Below, one piece after another: positions 1 to 15,000 of a DNA stretch of 32,000 bases (its first letter is position 1; every line of letters begins with the position of its first letter). The position numbers are program-made. This DNA is from Geotalea daltonii FRC-32 (GTDB taxonomy: Bacteria > Desulfobacterota > Desulfuromonadia > Geobacterales > Geobacteraceae): contig NC_011979.1 of the NCBI RefSeq assembly GCF_000022265.1, forward strand, positions 4,170,001 to 4,202,000. The letters run 5' to 3'.

Positions 1-3000
1 AGACACCTGCCCCGTTGGAGTGACAGTAGATCTGGGTACAGCCGTTGGCGGCATAGGCCAACCCGCCGGTCGATTTAGGCCCCCATGCCACGTTGTTCAC
101 CCTGTTTGCGTGAAGCGAAAAAGCGGTGACATTATCAAAGGCATTTACCGTCGAGGCATGGCACTCGTTGCACTTGAAGTTGAAACCGCTAAAACTGCTG
201 CTGGTATTGTTCACATGTGCAGTATGACCTTTGGTGGCAATCGGATCGGCTGAGGCTGCATTGTAACCATGACAACCGGCGCACCCCCCCGACAGCGAGC
301 CTCCCCAGGTAACCGGTTTATTGAAATGGCAGTAGACATTGGTGCACTGTTGGGCACTACTGTCCCAGCGAATTGCCCCGGCGATGCTGTTGCCGGTAAC
401 GTTGCGGAAGCCATTGGGATGCCTGTCGCGTCTGTTGGCAATAAGAGTAGTATTGTCGGCTGCGGTCGCTGCATGGCAGGCGTTACAGGTGGCATTGGCA
501 CTGCGGGAGCCGGAAAGGTGCTTAGAGTGGGAACCGGACCAGGTGGGGTTGGCATCACCATACTGGTTGTGACAGTTGCCGCAGACGACCCCGGTTGAGG
601 TTGTCCACTCCAGTCTTGGCGCCGATGTGCTGTTGCGTTTCCCCGGGTTGCCACGCCCATCGGAGTGGCAGTAGGTATCACAGGTGGTCCCGGTGGAATA
701 ACCATAGCCGCGGCCATCGTAATTTACGCCGGTGCCACGCGTCACTGTCTCCGGTCTCGTTGCCCCCACAGGAGGTGTAAACGGCAGGCGCAAGGCGACC
801 TCGGCCACCGAGCCATTGGTAACGCCTGCCGGCGGCCCGCTCAGATGGCTGGTGGTCGGGCTGCCAGGGTGACATACCCCGCACATGAAGACGTTGGTTG
901 AAACTGAGCGATTTACATTGGCCCAGCCATCCTCCGTGGTATTTGCCGGCCGGCTGCTCGTATTGTAATGCTTGCGGTGGGCCGCTGAAAGGGTGGCTGA
1001 GGTCGTGGTCGTGTTGTTGGCCTCATGGCAGTTACCGCAGGTATTGAGGGTTACCGTATCCCAGTCGCGGGTGGAGGTGGTGGCATTGTTGGTATGGCAG
1101 TAAGTGTTGGAACAGACATGAGTGGAAGTACTGTAGCTACCGGAGAAGTTTGCCATTTTTATGAACGACACATCGATGGTGCGGTTGATGTGCTTGACAT
1201 CTGTACCGTTGTATACCGATTGACCGTTAGATGCCACCGTATTCGAGTGGCACCAATTACATGAGACGGGTCGATGCGGCAGGGGGCCGCCATTGATATG
1301 GTTCAGGTGCCGCCCGGAGCTCATCTGATTCTGGATTCCTGCCAAACCGTTATGGCAGTAATTGCACTCGATTACCCCCTGCTGGTTGTCACCGATGGTC
1401 TTCCATGTCTGGGGAGGGGCTTTATACCTTCCCTTGCCGTTGGAATGGCAGTACACCGTACATGTCTTGGCAGGGTCGTAGGAAAGGACACTGGTCCCCC
1501 CGGTTGGCACATACGCGGCATCGGGGCCCCAGTTCACATCGGCTGCGCCATTGACATGAAGGGAAGTAGAAATCAGCCCGGTGTCGGAGGAATTCACCGT
1601 CGAATTATGACATTCCTGACAACGGAAATTGAACCCGCCAAAACGGACACTGGTGTTGTCGACGTGGGCTTTGTGACCATTGCTGGTAATGGTTGAAACC
1701 GCATCCGCATTGTTACCATGGCAATTTACACAGCCGGTTGAGTAACTGCTGTCACCCCAAGTCGGGTTCTGTCGAGGTGGTTTTCCTTTTCCGTCGCTGT
1801 GACAGTAAAGATTGGAACATTCTCCATAGGCCGCGCTTGGCGCCATATCACCAGTGGAACCTGCAGCTGCCGGAGTCAAGGAACCGGCCGCCTGGTACCC
1901 GGCTGATGATCCTACCAGAGGGTCCGTCGTTTTCATTGCCCAGCGCACATTCCCCTGGACATGGGAAACATCAATAGCCGGATGACAGAGATCACAGGAG
2001 AAGCTGTAACCGGTAGAACCAGAGTGCCTGACATGGCTTCCCATGGTGGGCGGTGTGGTCGGTGTAGTTCCGTGGCAGCTGCCGCATTGATTCTGACTTG
2101 CTGCGTCCCAGCGCGGCGATTGGTTTGCCCCGCCCGTTAACGGAGCTTTCACCTGCACTGCACCAACTTTCACACCACCCCCGTGGCAGTATACATTGGA
2201 GCAGATGTTGGCAACGGCATGATCGGTAACCACCGCTGCTATCGTTGTGTTTGGAGTGCCTGAAGAAACAGAGTAGCCACGGTCAACGGAAGAATAGGGA
2301 ACATAGGTGCCGCTGGTTACCTTGCCGCCAAAACCATAAAAACCGATATCGAGGCTGTTGCTCAGGTTGGGCATCCTAATGGTGCCGTTGCTTATATAGT
2401 GGCAGGTATCACAGACCATGCCCCTGGCCTCGGTATGGGTAACATGGGCGCCGGCCTGTCCGGAAACAAGGGCATTGGAAGCTCGCGGTGTACCAATGAG
2501 CCCCGTATCCCCACCCAGCACCGCCTCCGAAGGGGGATTGCCGTGACAACCGCCGCAGGCGGCCTTGAAACCGGTATTATGCTTATGGCATGTTGTACAA
2601 ATGGCTTTTGGGGTAGGATGACTGAGGTTGCCACCATTGGCGATATTGTTTGCGGTATCTGCATTATGAAATTTATTTTGGCTGTGACAGGCTTCGCAGA
2701 TGCGGCTGGAAGTTGCATGGCCACCGGCATCCTCACCCATGCTGGTTACGTTGCTGAAGGATACGCCCACCGAAGGGGAGCCATTGGGCCAGTTTTCGCC
2801 GTTCTGAGTAGTCAAGACGCGGCGGACGTTCTTAATATTGGGCTTTTTATTCGGCTCATGGCAGGTGGAACATTCGAATTTCCCGTACTTACCGCTTGTT
2901 ACCCCCCATCCTCCTTGGGCGGCCCATTTTGTCGAGCCGGTTCCCTCGCTGTTATGCATAAGATCAACGGCACCCGATGGTAAAGGGATCAAACATATCG

Positions 3001-12000: not shown

Positions 12001-15000
12001 TTCCCGGAGCAACTGCAAAATTGTTTGTGAACGGAGGACCGATGGTGCCGGTATATGTTCCGGCCATTACCGTTGAGATACCGGAAAATCCTTTCCAGGT
12101 CTTCCTGTCGATTCGGAAACCCATCTCGATCATGTCATTGCCATTGAGAATGCCATGACCGTAATTGTTATGGCAGGTATAGCACTCCATTTGCTCAATG
12201 TTGCGGTGGCGGTGATGAGCGCCGGCATCGGCGGGGGGATTGAAACCAAGGGTGTTACTGCCATACACCATGGTTGCCGGGCTGGTTGGGGGTATCCCGT
12301 GACAGGACGTACACTCACCTACCTGAGGGGCCTTGTAGCCTGTGCTGTGCTGATGGCATCCGTTACAATCTCTCCTGTTACTGCTCCCTTTTGGTCCATG
12401 TTCCGCATGTACAATATTGGATAACTTGCTGGCACTGTAATTGTGGTAGAGGGTCCTGTGATGGCATACCTCGCAGACATTGCGGGAGCCATCCTTATAA
12501 TCAGTCCGTTCGTCATTTCCGAAAACACCGGTTATCCCATTGGACGTTGTGGTATAGCGGTCGAAGATGACTCTTCTTTTACCTGTGGGAGTGGCAATAG
12601 AATAGTTGATGTACTTGATGTTCTTTCCCGCTTTTCTATTGTGACAGGTAGCACAGGTATACTCGCTACCCCAAGTTCCGTATTTGCCCGAAGCAGTGTT
12701 GGTACTGTTATGGATCAGTTTGAGAGCATCGGCACTTGCAGCCGTCGGGAAAAGATGATCTGCTATAAAAAAACCAATGATCAGTAAGGCCACGATCATT
12801 GTCATGACGCTTGCCTGGGTCTTGCTGCCTGTTGCAGCAACACTTCCCACTTTATCGTGTCTCATATGGTTCATCTCCCTTTACCCGCAAATCGCATCTG
12901 ACGCAGGGCTAAGCAAACCCCGTAAAAAAGCTGAATCTTTCGCAAATGCAGTTAGTTCACGACTCATTAAAAGCAGACCCTATTTCTAATGAGTTTATTA
13001 AGTCGTAATAATTACTTTGATTATATGTATAGCGAAATTAAACAGGTTCTTGTTAAGCAGGATTAATGCCAAAATTGAGTTTTTTTCATTTAGCATTGCT
13101 GACTGGAACCAGAGGCGCTTAGCTGTCGAATTTCTTTAGTTTTAGCGAATTGGGAAGTATGGGGGGAACCAAGGTAAATAGGTAATTTAACAGGTAGGAA
13201 AGGGAAACAGCCTGTTTGCAGGAAAGGATACCGTAACTATTGAAGGTCAAATTCTGCAGACAAAAGCCTGCTGCCGTAAGGAAAAGCATCCGTTTTGCAA
13301 GCTATGTTCTTCACTCAAAAAGCATGTGGCGCCAGCTTGGTACTGAACTGCTCCTGCAGATCCATGTGGACCTCCGGACATGTTATCTTCTGGCGGGATG
13401 GATTTGGAGCTACTTCAGTCTTCTATTTTTTTCTTCTCTCATAATATGACTCGCTCCATATCACCTTCGAAGGATCGAACTTCTTCATCTTCGCTGCATC
13501 GTCAACATCTTTCTCAAATTCGGATTTCGCGGCCCTGCGCTCCTCAGCCTTTTTCTTCGACTCCTCCCTGGGAGTCGGCCCCACCCTGTAGATAGAATCG
13601 ATAGTGAATTTTTTGGGGTCCTTTCGCCGCCTCTCAAGGCGTTTTTTCTCATTGAGCGTATAGGTATCGACGAAGGCCTCCAGTCGCGCGTCGATCTTGT
13701 ACATCTGCTCACCGGCATCATTGACGTGGCCGATAAGCGGCTCGGCCGGTTTTTCTATCACCTTCACCTCATAGAAAGCGAGGCAGCCAGCTTTGTTCAC
13801 CAGGTTCTTCACGTGCGTTTCAACCATCGTCTTGTGATCCGAATTCGCCTGGGTGGTTATGGGGAAGAGGTTCTTCGCGACCCCAGGACCGCCAACATTG
13901 TCGTTGAGCAGGTGTCCCTTGATATACGTCTCCCCTCCCGAGCGTCCCTTGCCGACCTTACCGACAGTCGGAAGGATGGAGAAAACTTCCGCCTGCTCCG
14001 AATCCTTCGGGCTTGTCCCCTGTCCGTGGTTAGGAGCAAGATACTCATATGTCATGTGGTAACCGGCAACGGAAGACTTGTTGCCGATCCTCACACTTCC
14101 AGTACGGTAAGTAATCACCGGCTTTACTTCGACATCCCCCACTTTGACAGGCTCGGCAGACCCCGCAATTGTGGTTTCAAATATATCCAGCAGTTCCGCG
14201 AGCAATGTCTCCAGCTTCGCAGGTGTGTCCTTCGGTTTCTCTTTGTTTTCCTGAGCCGCCTTTTGCAGAATGGCGTCGAGTTTCCCTGCTTCGTCGAGTT
14301 TCGGTTTCGCCCCCTTCATTGCAGTGGTCGCATCGGCACTCCCGGCATCCGCTTTCCACCGGTTGATCCTCGCCTGCACCTCCGCCGGGTCTTCACTTGC
14401 GACCCATGGGCGCGGTTTCGCCTCCGTTCTCTTGAAGAAGAATTCGTGCTTCGCCCCTTTCGGCGTCCTGAAAGAGCTTTTCCTTTTCCACCAACCTACT
14501 ATAGCGCCTCCTGTATCCTTGGCTGTTTTCCACAACTTCTTCGCCCCGGCAACGATCCACTCCACTACCTTCTCCAGCGCTTTGTCAATGGGGGCACGGA
14601 CCTTGTTCATGATGCCGGTGGTTATGTCGGTCACCTTGCCGAGACCGACCAAGCGGGCGAGAAAGCTGATCACCATAGTAAGCAGCCCTGCCATGGTCTG
14701 CTCGACCCGGTTTGCCGCAGCGGCAATCGCTCCCGATGCGATGGCGGCAATGGAATCGAGGAAGGATTTCGCCACCTGGGTGATCTGCTTGATCCGTTCG
14801 ATGAAGAACATGATCGTGTTGTAGATGGCGATGATTGCCTGGATGATCGCCCCTGCCGGGTTCAGGCTCGTGACGAGCTTGGTGATGGCACTCTCCACCA
14901 CCTTCACGATAACGAAATTGCGGATCTCCTCCAGAACAATCTCCTTCAGGTTGGAAAGCTGCTCCTTTATCTTCTCCCAGGCGGCCGCGGGGCCTTCCTT

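Follow-up and report, generated by a model that had tools for sequence, protein, structure and literature searches.

Does the row of very large multihaem cytochrome genes at one edge of a 32,000-nucleotide stretch of the Geotalea daltonii FRC-32 genome (contig NC_011979.1, positions 4,170,001 to 4,202,000; hereafter the window) represent something new, and what would such proteins do? In Geobacter-type electron transfer to minerals and electrodes, giant single-chain multihaem cytochromes are already recognised as a component, and the window brings no new kind of protein. What it holds is a triad with 132-150 haems in total that stays together across species, its lengths shifting in clean hexahaem steps. 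We consider it rather probable that the array is a conserved operon, with a probable sigma-54-type promoter, of three anciently diverged giant cytochromes serving as long single-chain electron conduits.

Three intact genes of a named family

All three genes lie on the minus strand. By open reading frame and direct motif count, gene A (7508..12865) encodes a multihaem cytochrome of 1785 aa that carries 44 motifs (30 CxxCH, 2 CxxxCH and 12 CxxxxCH). Its reading frame spans 7508-12874, but as the ATG at 12874 is ATA in G. toluenoxydans the start is likely the ATG at 12865, where the exact gene A product found in SRR29904085 also begins. Gene B (3133..7494) encodes 1453 aa with 35 motifs (25 CxxCH, 1 CxxxCH and 9 CxxxxCH). 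Gene C is cut by the window edge, and its 5' part (1..3121) supplies the first 1040 codons with 24 motifs (17 CxxCH, 2 CxxxCH and 5 CxxxxCH). The counts of 44, 35 and 24 given in the first-pass annotation were thus exact on recount. The window matches Logan contig SRR29904085_30395 with 0 mismatches over the 17,521 nt compared, and in that contig gene C is complete (L004 14401-21684), an uninterrupted frame of 2427 aa with 53 motifs. An interruption beyond the window had been named as the sign of a pseudogene; as the frame stays intact past the edge, gene C is not one, and its completion raises the motif total from 103 in the window to 132 for the whole array.

Shuffled sequences of A, B and C held on average 0.5-0.8 motifs and at most 5, so that chance is excluded. 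Nearly every cysteine lies inside a motif (88 of 88 in A, 70 of 71 in B and 106 of 109 in full-length C), histidines outside the motifs outnumber the motifs themselves (52 vs 44, 38 vs 35 and 68 vs 53 in A, B and C), and there are about 41-46 residues per haem. The proteins, of roughly 180-300 kDa by a rough estimate, consist of about 12-13% Gly, 9-12% Ala, 9-10% Thr, 8-10% Ser and 8-9% Asn.

TIGR01904 and PF09698 describe the CxxxxCH/CxxCH domain c-type cytochromes, originally defined from Geobacter sulfurreducens proteins. The first-pass annotation had named TIGR01904 as the family of these multihaem c-type cytochromes, correctly, since A, B and C each score above the curated cut-offs of both models (27 bits for TIGR01904 in NCBIfam, 21.7 bits for PF09698 in Pfam). 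TIGR01904 scores are 423.6 bits over 13 stretches for A, 318.1 over 9 for B and 213 for the windowed part of C; those for PF09698 are 140.7, 114.1 and 92.2 bits, rising to 111.3 bits for full-length C, and each protein carries 6-13 copies of these domains. The paired Cx4CH...CxxCH signature is the same, and no defining feature differs: Cx4CH motifs number 12, 9 and 9 in A, B and C, and in A and B each is followed by a CxxCH within 21-34 residues, save the last in B (38).

The family is large: grouping its members at 50% identity (E <= 1e-30) gives at least 560 clusters. Among 353 retrieved members, 105 have at least 44 motifs and 50 at least 53, the largest having 151, 126 and 108, and a published survey counted up to 87 motifs in Desulfuromonadia cytochromes (PMC11492766). 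The earlier placing of these proteins at the extreme end for single polypeptides therefore does not hold, nor does the ceiling of roughly 27 haems given for G. sulfurreducens, in which one family member of 2799 aa (P0088) has 34 motifs. A, B and C are mid-sized members of an already named Geobacter cytochrome family, ordinary for the group; as the same three-gene set occurs in published relatives, the find is real but ordinary.

Hexahaem modules set the length

The three proteins are built of trihaem units of the form Cx4CH...W...CxxCH...HxxH...CxxCH...H, which alternate between two subtypes: alpha units span about 100 aa, beta units about 120 aa. Units of the same subtype are 43-67% identical, those of different subtypes 23-33%. 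Gene A opens with 5 CxxCH motifs as its head; trihaem units follow, among them 4 alpha-beta hexahaem pairs, and a C-terminal cap closes the protein. Gene B has 3 such pairs and shares the cap with A; it is similar to C in its N-terminal part and to A over the C-terminal 1060 aa (52% identity). As the super-repeat is a hexahaem alpha-beta pair, gene A orthologues form a series in which 4, 5, 6, 7 and 8 pairs match 44, 50, 56, 62 and 68 motifs. Both in 27 B/C-type homologues and in 57 alpha-beta modules the motif Cys and His are nearly all invariant, and so are the HxxH pair and a further His in each unit.

No usable full model came from structure prediction (pLDDT 37.5), and a Foldseek search with the model of a module (pLDDT 66) found no match in the PDB; that the haems stack in a linear chain is therefore an assumption. 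A sequence search of solved structures at E <= 0.01 returned no match, a profile search giving only marginal, motif-driven hits to reaction-centre cytochromes. Domain profile searches of A, B and C detected no catalytic or substrate-binding domain.

An old triplication under purifying selection

An annotated protein of Geotalea toluenoxydans (P0001), which NCBI names as a CxxxxCH/CxxCH family member, shares 97% identity with gene A. The order A-B-C, with spacers of 8-21 nt, recurs in five other genomes: G. toluenoxydans, G. uraniireducens Rf4, Geobacter sp. OR-1, DSM 9736 and a JGI metagenome contig. In some arrays, as in OR-1 and DSM 9736, a fourth cytochrome is present or the third gene is a different one. 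The array of Geotalea uraniireducens Rf4 (CP000698.1, about 97.1-115.6 kb; 2222, 1438 and 2515 aa with 56, 35 and 59 motifs) keeps the order and strand with spacers of 8 and 13 nt, at 61%, 77% and 79% identity for A, B and C. It differs in that its gene A has two more alpha-beta pairs (56 vs 44 motifs) and its gene C 59 motifs rather than 53, whereas gene B has exactly 35 in both. The genes around the Rf4 array are unrelated to those here, with citrate synthase, PrpD and CobA genes upstream, an HD-domain gene downstream and no injection system. Gene B orthologues are 59-82% identical, and four of the five compared keep exactly 35 motifs; the C-terminus of gene C varies between species and is not conserved.

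That the three genes are paralogous, as first annotated, stands. Their identity within the array is 27-52% and mosaic, whereas positional orthologues across species are 46-82% identical, each array gene being closest to the gene at the same position elsewhere, with the order preserved. The triplication is therefore old, and a recent local duplication finds no support. Values of dN/dS are 0.12-0.16 (0.117 for gene A against G. toluenoxydans, 0.157 for gene B), and the array is under purifying selection.

Junctions, candidate promoter and neighbours

The A-to-B junction (7495..7507, minus strand) is a 13-nt spacer, GGAGGGAGGGTGC, from a TGA stop to an ATG, and the B-to-C junction (3122..3132, minus strand) an 11-nt spacer, GGGGAAGGCAC, from a TAA stop to an ATG. 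These lengths, which agree with the 11-13 nt first reported, hold if the upstream ATGs are taken as starts. Within the 5' end of gene B (7453..7470, minus strand) AAAGGTGAA at 7462-7470 is followed by an in-frame ATG 7 nt after GGTGA, probably a second or the true ribosome-binding site and start, and the true start of gene B may be the ATG at 7453-7455. Gene C has the same AAAGGTGAA-N-ATG element at its 5' end (3071..3088, minus strand; AAAGGTGAA at 3080-3088). About 10 B and C orthologues from 5 genomes show the AAGGTGA-N7-ATG layout, the Gly codon always GGT and the next residue varying (E, K, N or D), a pattern that looks like a maintained ribosome-binding site. The shared motif had been taken as a sign that the junction belonged to the duplication unit; as its conservation across species, with the invariant GGT, resembles that of a maintained site, it is uninformative on the duplication unit.

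Upstream of gene A a non-coding region of ~550 nt (12866..13422, minus strand), with a lower G+C of about 0.48, separates it from an injection-system effector gene. In this region an Rfam search found no match, no sigma-70-like site or terminator rose above expectation, and conservation with relatives is limited to about the proximal 300 nt. A sigma-54-type -24/-12-like element, TGGCATTAATCCTGCT (13056..13071, minus strand), lies upstream of gene A, ~190 nt from its start. By itself the match is not above chance in the window. The same element, unchanged and equally spaced, occurs in G. toluenoxydans and in a 78%-identity relative which has an unrelated upstream gene, although its flanks diverge; we regard it as a candidate operon promoter.

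Directly upstream of gene A and on the same strand lies a contractile injection system cluster with tape-measure, AAA ATPase and eCIS_core genes, neighbours that had earlier been missed. This linkage is found only in the window and in G. toluenoxydans and is absent in the four other genomes. Beyond gene C are DUF1653, Zn-ribbon and Band_7 genes. In the window and just past gene C there is no porin, lipoprotein or maturation gene beside the array, in keeping with the absence first noted, and likewise no linked secretion gene or lipoprotein anchor; no porin was seen beside the arrays of G. uraniireducens Rf4, OR-1, DSM 9736 and the JGI contig.

Export and proposed function

Read from the sequence, the N-terminus of gene A (12731..12865, minus strand; aa 1-45) is signal-peptide-like and ends ...TAASA|DA, the equivalent ends being ...VQA|AD in B and ...SGA|VD in C, which would place putative cleavage sites at AxA-like positions. 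Each protein has a single hydrophobic segment, N-terminal, with basic residues before it and an AxA-like site after it. The Kyte-Doolittle 19-residue mean outside that segment is at most 1.13; the profile and the sequence reading both agree with the original description of signal-peptide-like N-termini and no other hydrophobic segment. No lipobox Cys was found at the N-termini of A, B and C: the only N-terminal Cys, in WCLA of B and ICLI of C, lie within the hydrophobic core, and gene A has none.

We propose that the A-B-C operon is transcribed from its own sigma-54-type promoter, that the products would be exported by the Sec pathway and that the general cytochrome c maturation machinery would load them in the periplasm with one covalent haem per motif, the polypeptide being little beyond a scaffold for haems. 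As each unit has three proximal and three conserved distal His, bis-His, low-spin, electron-transfer haems are implied. In evolution whole hexahaem alpha-beta pairs are added or lost, and the haem chain lengthens or shortens by a fixed increment each time. By analogy, the products may be long single-chain conduits in the extracytoplasmic electron-transfer chain of an iron-reducing Geotalea, taking electrons outward from the envelope to acceptors that are insoluble, and it is reasonable to infer that each protein could conduct over tens of nanometres. The absence of a linked outer-membrane porin, lipoprotein anchor or secretion gene speaks against this reading. According to the survey, proteins of the 35-motif class are predicted to be extracellular, and in its models related long members form wires that exceed the width of the periplasm (PMC11492766).

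Alternative readings

That the genes are recent tandem duplicates, silent or in decay, and gene C perhaps a pseudogene, is suggested only by three similar genes in a row, one of them cut at the window edge; we regard it as extremely improbable, and at sequence level it is refuted by the intact gene C of the contig, the divergence of the paralogues beyond that of the orthologues and the low dN/dS, the motif Cys and His being moreover nearly invariant across homologues. Hardly more credible is the notion that the cytochromes are cargo or accessory proteins of the adjacent contractile injection system. Payload genes of such systems usually come after the ATPase and the DUF4157 gene, the very position that A-C occupy, directly downstream and on the same strand, here and in G. 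toluenoxydans. Synteny largely refutes this reading, however: the upstream neighbours are unrelated in G. uraniireducens, OR-1, DSM 9736 and the JGI contig, and the 550-nt gap has its own conserved promoter-like element, common to a relative lacking an injection system there. Moreover, A-C have putative Sec-type signal peptides and would need haem attachment in the periplasm, which is at odds with loading into a tail tube in the cytoplasm.

A more serious possibility, to which we nevertheless give clearly less credence than to the conduit, is that the 132 haems are mainly an extracytoplasmic capacitor for respiration without a reachable acceptor, long-distance transfer being secondary. The very high haem density, the lack of a detected catalytic or substrate-binding domain and of an outer-membrane partner linked to the array would fit, and of the two reasons that the survey gives for cytochromes of very great length, electron storage is one (PMC11492766). 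Yet many small cytochromes would hold charge equally well, and a store leaves three distinct conserved paralogues in fixed order, with strict hexahaem steps, unexplained. Storage and conduit roles are not mutually exclusive. It is unlikely, in our view, that A, B and C form an obligate hetero-complex, docking either end to end or laterally to form one conduit of >130 haems. Such docking would account for the conserved triad, its order and its tight gene coupling, kept with short spacers in five other genomes, and the mosaic B, its N-terminal part as in C and its cap as in A, would suit shared interfaces; the fourth cytochrome or different third gene in OR-1 and DSM 9736 arrays and the unconserved C-terminus of C speak against it. 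Equally doubtful is its fullest form, a single machine joined through pairwise shared termini (B-C heads, A-B caps), with 130-150 haems, a length of the order of ~100 nm and a reach tuned by hexahaem cassettes; if true, it would offer an alternative to nanowires of polymerised cytochromes, one that is genetically encoded and quantised in length. Whether as single-chain conduits, the reading we prefer, or as stores, the array is a defined conserved target, and its natural variants of 44 to 68 haems suit testing of chain length against transfer distance or storage.

Comparison with known cytochrome systems

The principle of construction is shared with GSU1996 (PDB 3OV0), the dodecahaem 'nanowire' cytochrome of G. 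sulfurreducens and a polymer of c7-like trihaem domains: trihaem domains are repeated in one polypeptide chain, and Pfam Cytochrome_C7 (PF14522) matches A-C at 57-141 bits, passing its cut-off. Unlike GSU1996, the units of A-C open with Cx4CH and come in two alternating subtypes, with no sequence match to a solved structure and no PDB fold match for the module. With the MtrC/OmcA-type outer-surface decahaem cytochromes there is in common a match to PF22113 (MtrC/MtrF domains II/IV), which full-length C makes at 101.8 bits in 7 stretches, strongest in its C-terminal third; A-C, however, lack a lipoprotein signal, are not linked to MtrA/MtrB-like porin-cytochrome genes and are four to five times larger.

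OmcS, OmcE and OmcZ filaments gain length by polymerising subunits of 4-8 haems. Neither PDB sequence searches of A-C nor fold searches with the module model gave hits indicating similarity to them. The presumed common purpose is a continuous haem chain of tens of nm or more for extracellular electron transfer, which in A-C, in contrast to these filaments, has its length encoded in a single chain and changed by adding hexahaem modules.

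Results

Gene layout and completion of gene C

The minus strand carries all long open reading frames of the window, and three of them, here called genes A, B and C, fill positions 1-12874. An ORF search places gene A at 7508-12874 and the frame of gene B at 3133-7746, with a plausible start at the ATG at 7494, which lies 13 nt beyond the stop codon of A. Gene C begins at 3121, 11 nt beyond the stop codon of B, and is cut off by the window edge at position 1. As Geotalea toluenoxydans reads ATA in place of the first ATG of A (12874), the start at 12865 used in public gene calls is the likelier one. 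An exact public record exists for the 1785-residue product that begins there and none for the longer version.

The product of gene A is on record in the Logan assembly SRR29904085, contig _30395 (65,959 bp), which is identical to the window across the 17,521 nt compared. Looking up the exact product of B with 10-kb flanks recovered the whole of gene C from this contig, where it is an uninterrupted ORF of 2427 aa (14401-21684 of locus L004), answering the concern of the first-pass annotation that the truncated paralogue might prove to be a pseudogene. A homologue search with the C fragment returned no full-length orthologue. Beyond C lie three convergent genes, encoding a DUF1653 protein, a zinc-ribbon protein and a Band_7 protein, indicating that the cytochrome unit consists of exactly three genes.

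The C-terminal 40% of full-length C (residues about 1480-2427) departs from the trihaem repeat described below, the haem density drops and matches resembling MtrC/MtrF appear. Two cysteines outside motifs (2405 and 2414) lie within its final 25 residues, and in the G. uraniireducens orthologue this C-terminus lacks conservation, the protein there ending with an additional haem motif.

Haem motifs

The haem-attachment motifs (CxxCH, CxxxCH and CxxxxCH, with counts in that order) number 44 in A (30, 2 and 12), 35 in B (25, 1 and 9) and 24 in the 1040 codons of C inside the window (17, 2 and 5). The first-pass count of 103 was thus exact, and the account of composition that went with it, of Gly/Thr/Asn/Ser-rich proteins with signal-peptide-like N-termini, holds as well, each protein having one hydrophobic segment, at the N-terminus. 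Complete C carries 53 motifs (41, 3 and 9), bringing the array to 132. When the three proteins were shuffled, a mean of 0.5-0.8 motifs was found and never more than 5. All 88 cysteines of A fall inside motifs, as do 70 of the 71 of B and 106 of the 109 of full-length C; one non-motif cysteine of B and one of C are located in the signal peptide. Histidines outside the motifs are at least as numerous as the motifs themselves (52 in A, 38 in B and 68 in full-length C). The scarcity of cysteine elsewhere and the ample supply of non-motif histidine argue for genuine haem sites over chance occurrences.

Family membership and size

The three proteins belong to TIGR01904, the family that had been suggested for them, with scores of 423.6 bits for A, 318.1 for B and 213 for the C fragment (cut-off 27) and with 13, 9 and 6 domain copies, respectively. 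All three also pass the Pfam models PF09698, PF14522 (c7-like) and PF14537. PF22113 (MtrC/MtrF domains II/IV) passes in A and B and gives its strongest match, of 101.8 bits, in the last third of full-length C, the fragment of C inside the window giving no match to it. The nearest named relative of A is a G. toluenoxydans protein, 97% identical, that NCBI names 'CxxxxCH/CxxCH domain c-type cytochrome'.

The proposal that these proteins stand at the extreme end for single polypeptides found no support, since by motif number A, B and C are not unusual within the family: 48 of 120 homologues of A carry at least 44 motifs. The ceiling of roughly 27 haems assumed for G. sulfurreducens was also too low, a 2799-aa member in that species having 34 motifs. 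A profile of the alpha-beta repeat module (see below) retrieved 560 clusters (50% identity) at E <= 1e-30 and 1486 at E <= 1e-10. The largest among 353 retrieved sequences, the homologous proteins P0230, P0263 and P0252 (5264, 4309 and 3917 aa), are members of this module family whose predicted sequences have 151, 126 and 108 motifs on a single chain, all above the maximum of 87 per polypeptide in a 2024 survey of Desulfuromonadia (PMC11492766).

Repeat anatomy

Motif spacing and unit alignment resolve the proteins into a head with five CxxCH motifs, a run of trihaem units and a C-terminal cap that is common to A and B. The trihaem unit reads Cx4CH...W...CxxCH...HxxH...CxxCH...H, with three sites for haem plus three additional conserved histidines, and comes in two alternating subtypes, alpha of about 100 aa (signatures CSNISCHG, TGKHxxHINN and NYSGARAG) and beta of about 120 aa (YCHSDGKG and GEPNYA). 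Identity is 43-67% within a subtype, whereas between alpha and beta it is 23-33%. Across 27 homologues of the B and C types, and likewise across 57 alpha-beta modules from many proteins, nearly every motif residue and the additional histidines remain unchanged. Three distal histidines per three haems would be the pattern expected of bis-His electron-transfer haems. Orthologues of A with 44, 50, 56, 62 and 68 motifs have 4, 5, 6, 7 and 8 alpha-beta pairs, and B has 3 pairs, with 35 motifs in most of its orthologues; these steps indicate that evolutionary change proceeds by the alpha-beta pair, a hexahaem module. The B orthologue of a JGI metagenome contig (L009, 15351-19703) has 34 motifs instead of 35 through the loss of one CxxCH; it is a naturally occurring variant, at one site, of a protein whose motifs otherwise do not vary.

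By sequence, B has no detectable relatives of solved structure. A profile of the 27 sequences gave marginal, haem-motif-driven matches to reaction-centre cytochromes among solved structures (best E = 2.7e-5). AlphaFold2 yielded an unusable model of B residues 1-1200 (mean pLDDT 37.5) and, for one alpha-beta module built from the 57 module sequences, a model with pLDDT 66.3 and pTM 0.57, which matched nothing in the PDB by Foldseek at E <= 10.

Region upstream of gene A

The gap of about 550 nt between A and the upstream gene has a reduced G+C content. Cyclic-dinucleotide riboswitches are common ahead of Geobacter cytochrome genes; Rfam detected none in this gap, no family at its gathering thresholds anywhere in the window and none in 12700-13600 at E <= 1, and a scan of the gap for sigma-70 promoters and intrinsic terminators gave nothing above expectation. 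About 190 nt before the start of A, TGGCATTAATCCTGCT has the GG-N10-GC spacing that is the consensus of sigma-54 promoters. The bare pattern is not above chance, as it matches 43 times in the window where 37 matches are expected. Nevertheless G. toluenoxydans has the element without a change and at the same distance, and it is also unchanged in the JGI relative despite an A protein of 78% identity, an unrelated upstream gene and diverged surrounding DNA. It is therefore a probable promoter of an A-B-C operon.

Junctions and translation starts

Both the A-B and the B-C junction consist of a G-rich Shine-Dalgarno-like spacer and an ATG, with AAAGGTGAA slightly further in. B and C each have two in-frame pairs of Shine-Dalgarno sequence and ATG. 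The inner pair (AAGGTGA-N7-ATG; minus strand, 7453-7470 in B and 3071-3088 in C) is conserved across species, as the gene starts of loci L009, L010, L011 and L013 show, AAGGTGA or a one-base variant standing 7 nt ahead of an in-frame ATG in about 10 genes of the B and C types from five genomes; one gene of Geobacter sp. DSM 9736 has the ATG after 4 nt instead. The glycine codon within the element is always GGT and the next residue is E, K, N or D, a combination indicative of selection acting on the RNA. The simplest reading is that the element is the ribosome-binding site for the downstream ATG, which would give conventional signal peptides, and the 13-16 N-terminal residues annotated for B and C may be untranslated, or both starts may be used. 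The shared layout of the junctions noted earlier is real and conserved; it does not show that the junction was copied in a recent duplication, and the earlier proposal that the duplication unit included the junction does not follow from it.

Neighbouring contractile injection system

The minus-strand genes at 13423-32000, which the first-pass annotation had not named, form a contractile injection system cluster that runs off the window at 32000. From that end they encode a tube protein (31407-31949), a VgrG-like spike (29614-31347), a 106-aa ORF (29297-29617), a gp25-like wedge protein (28819-29310), a baseplate-J-like protein (25824-28928), ORFs of 916 aa (23089-25839) and 1010 aa (20126-23158), a tape-measure protein (18248-20110; PF19268), an AAA ATPase (16905-18308) and a 1160-aa protein (13423-16905) with an N-terminal eCIS_core/DUF4157 domain (E = 1.8e-32). 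The 1010-, 916- and 106-aa ORFs have no Pfam match and by position are probably baseplate or fibre components; in NCBIfam the 916-aa ORF matches the putative baseplate assembly protein TIGR02243 only very weakly, far below threshold. The C-terminus of the 1160-aa protein weakly matches DNA/RNA non-specific endonucleases (E = 1.4e-4, 22.6 bits, below the cut-off of 27), and the protein may be a nuclease effector of the system.

Discussion

Five other genomes, whose contexts were taken from exact-protein look-ups, have the same arrangement, in which an A-type gene, a B-type gene and a larger gene of the C type follow one another at intervals of 8-21 nt. The five are G. toluenoxydans, the JGI metagenome contig, G. 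uraniireducens Rf4 (56, 35 and 59 motifs, 150 in total), Geobacter sp. OR-1 (44, 35 and 38, plus a fourth cytochrome) and, as a variant, Geobacter sp. DSM 9736 (50, 29 and 35, plus a further gene). A scan of a genome collection with gene A found only four loci, and a literature search with the Rf4 locus tags found nothing relevant. The best matches of the window genes are the genes at the same position elsewhere, at 51-78% identity for A, 59-82% for B and 46-79% for C. Within the array, A and B are 52% identical, limited to the C-terminal ~1060 residues, B and C 37% over the N-terminal ~1360, and A and C 27%; from these partial matches B is a mosaic of a C-like head and an A-like tail. The dN/dS values against G. 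toluenoxydans (0.117 for A and 0.157 for B) indicate that both are maintained by selection. A recent duplication or a pseudogene is rejected on the excess of orthologue over paralogue identity, on dN/dS and on the intact gene C, and by these comparisons the array is old and conserved, with no local novelty. Its location raises a different possibility, as payload genes often occupy the position that the cytochromes take relative to the injection system, and for this reason a functional link was tested. Only the window and G. toluenoxydans show the adjacency; in the four remaining genomes the upstream genes are unrelated. The conserved promoter region accompanies the cytochromes, not the injection system. 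On synteny and on the Sec-type signals of the cytochromes we reject such a tie and regard the adjacency as lineage-specific and most likely coincidental.

Sec export, periplasmic haem attachment and transfer along haem chains are established for c-type cytochromes generally, and in Desulfovibrio cytochrome c3 the Cx4CH sites need no dedicated lyase. We propose that A, B and C would be exported via Sec, that the general maturation system would attach haem in the periplasm and that electrons would then pass along closely spaced bis-His haems arranged in a chain. Storage of electrons by these proteins and assembly of A, B and C into a hetero-complex are both live alternatives. The length per haem is about 1 nm in the dodecahaem protein GSU1996 and about 0.8 nm in OmcS filaments. 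A modelled 27-haem member is 35 nm long (PMC11492766). By such published ratios the proteins, if extended, would span roughly 35-57 nm (A), 27-45 nm (B) and 41-69 nm (C), making the initial estimate of conduction over tens of nanometres a reasonable one.

The Desulfuromonadia survey described spikes in motif number at 27, about 35 and 56 and predicted the 35-motif class to be extracellular (PMC11492766); we infer that the spikes at 35 and 56 match the B and A genes of such arrays. The array is a near-identical new representative of a previously described family and of a conserved arrangement that published genomes already contain, to which the conserved triad, the alternating alpha and beta units with their hexahaem steps and the conserved sigma-54-like element add modest new points.
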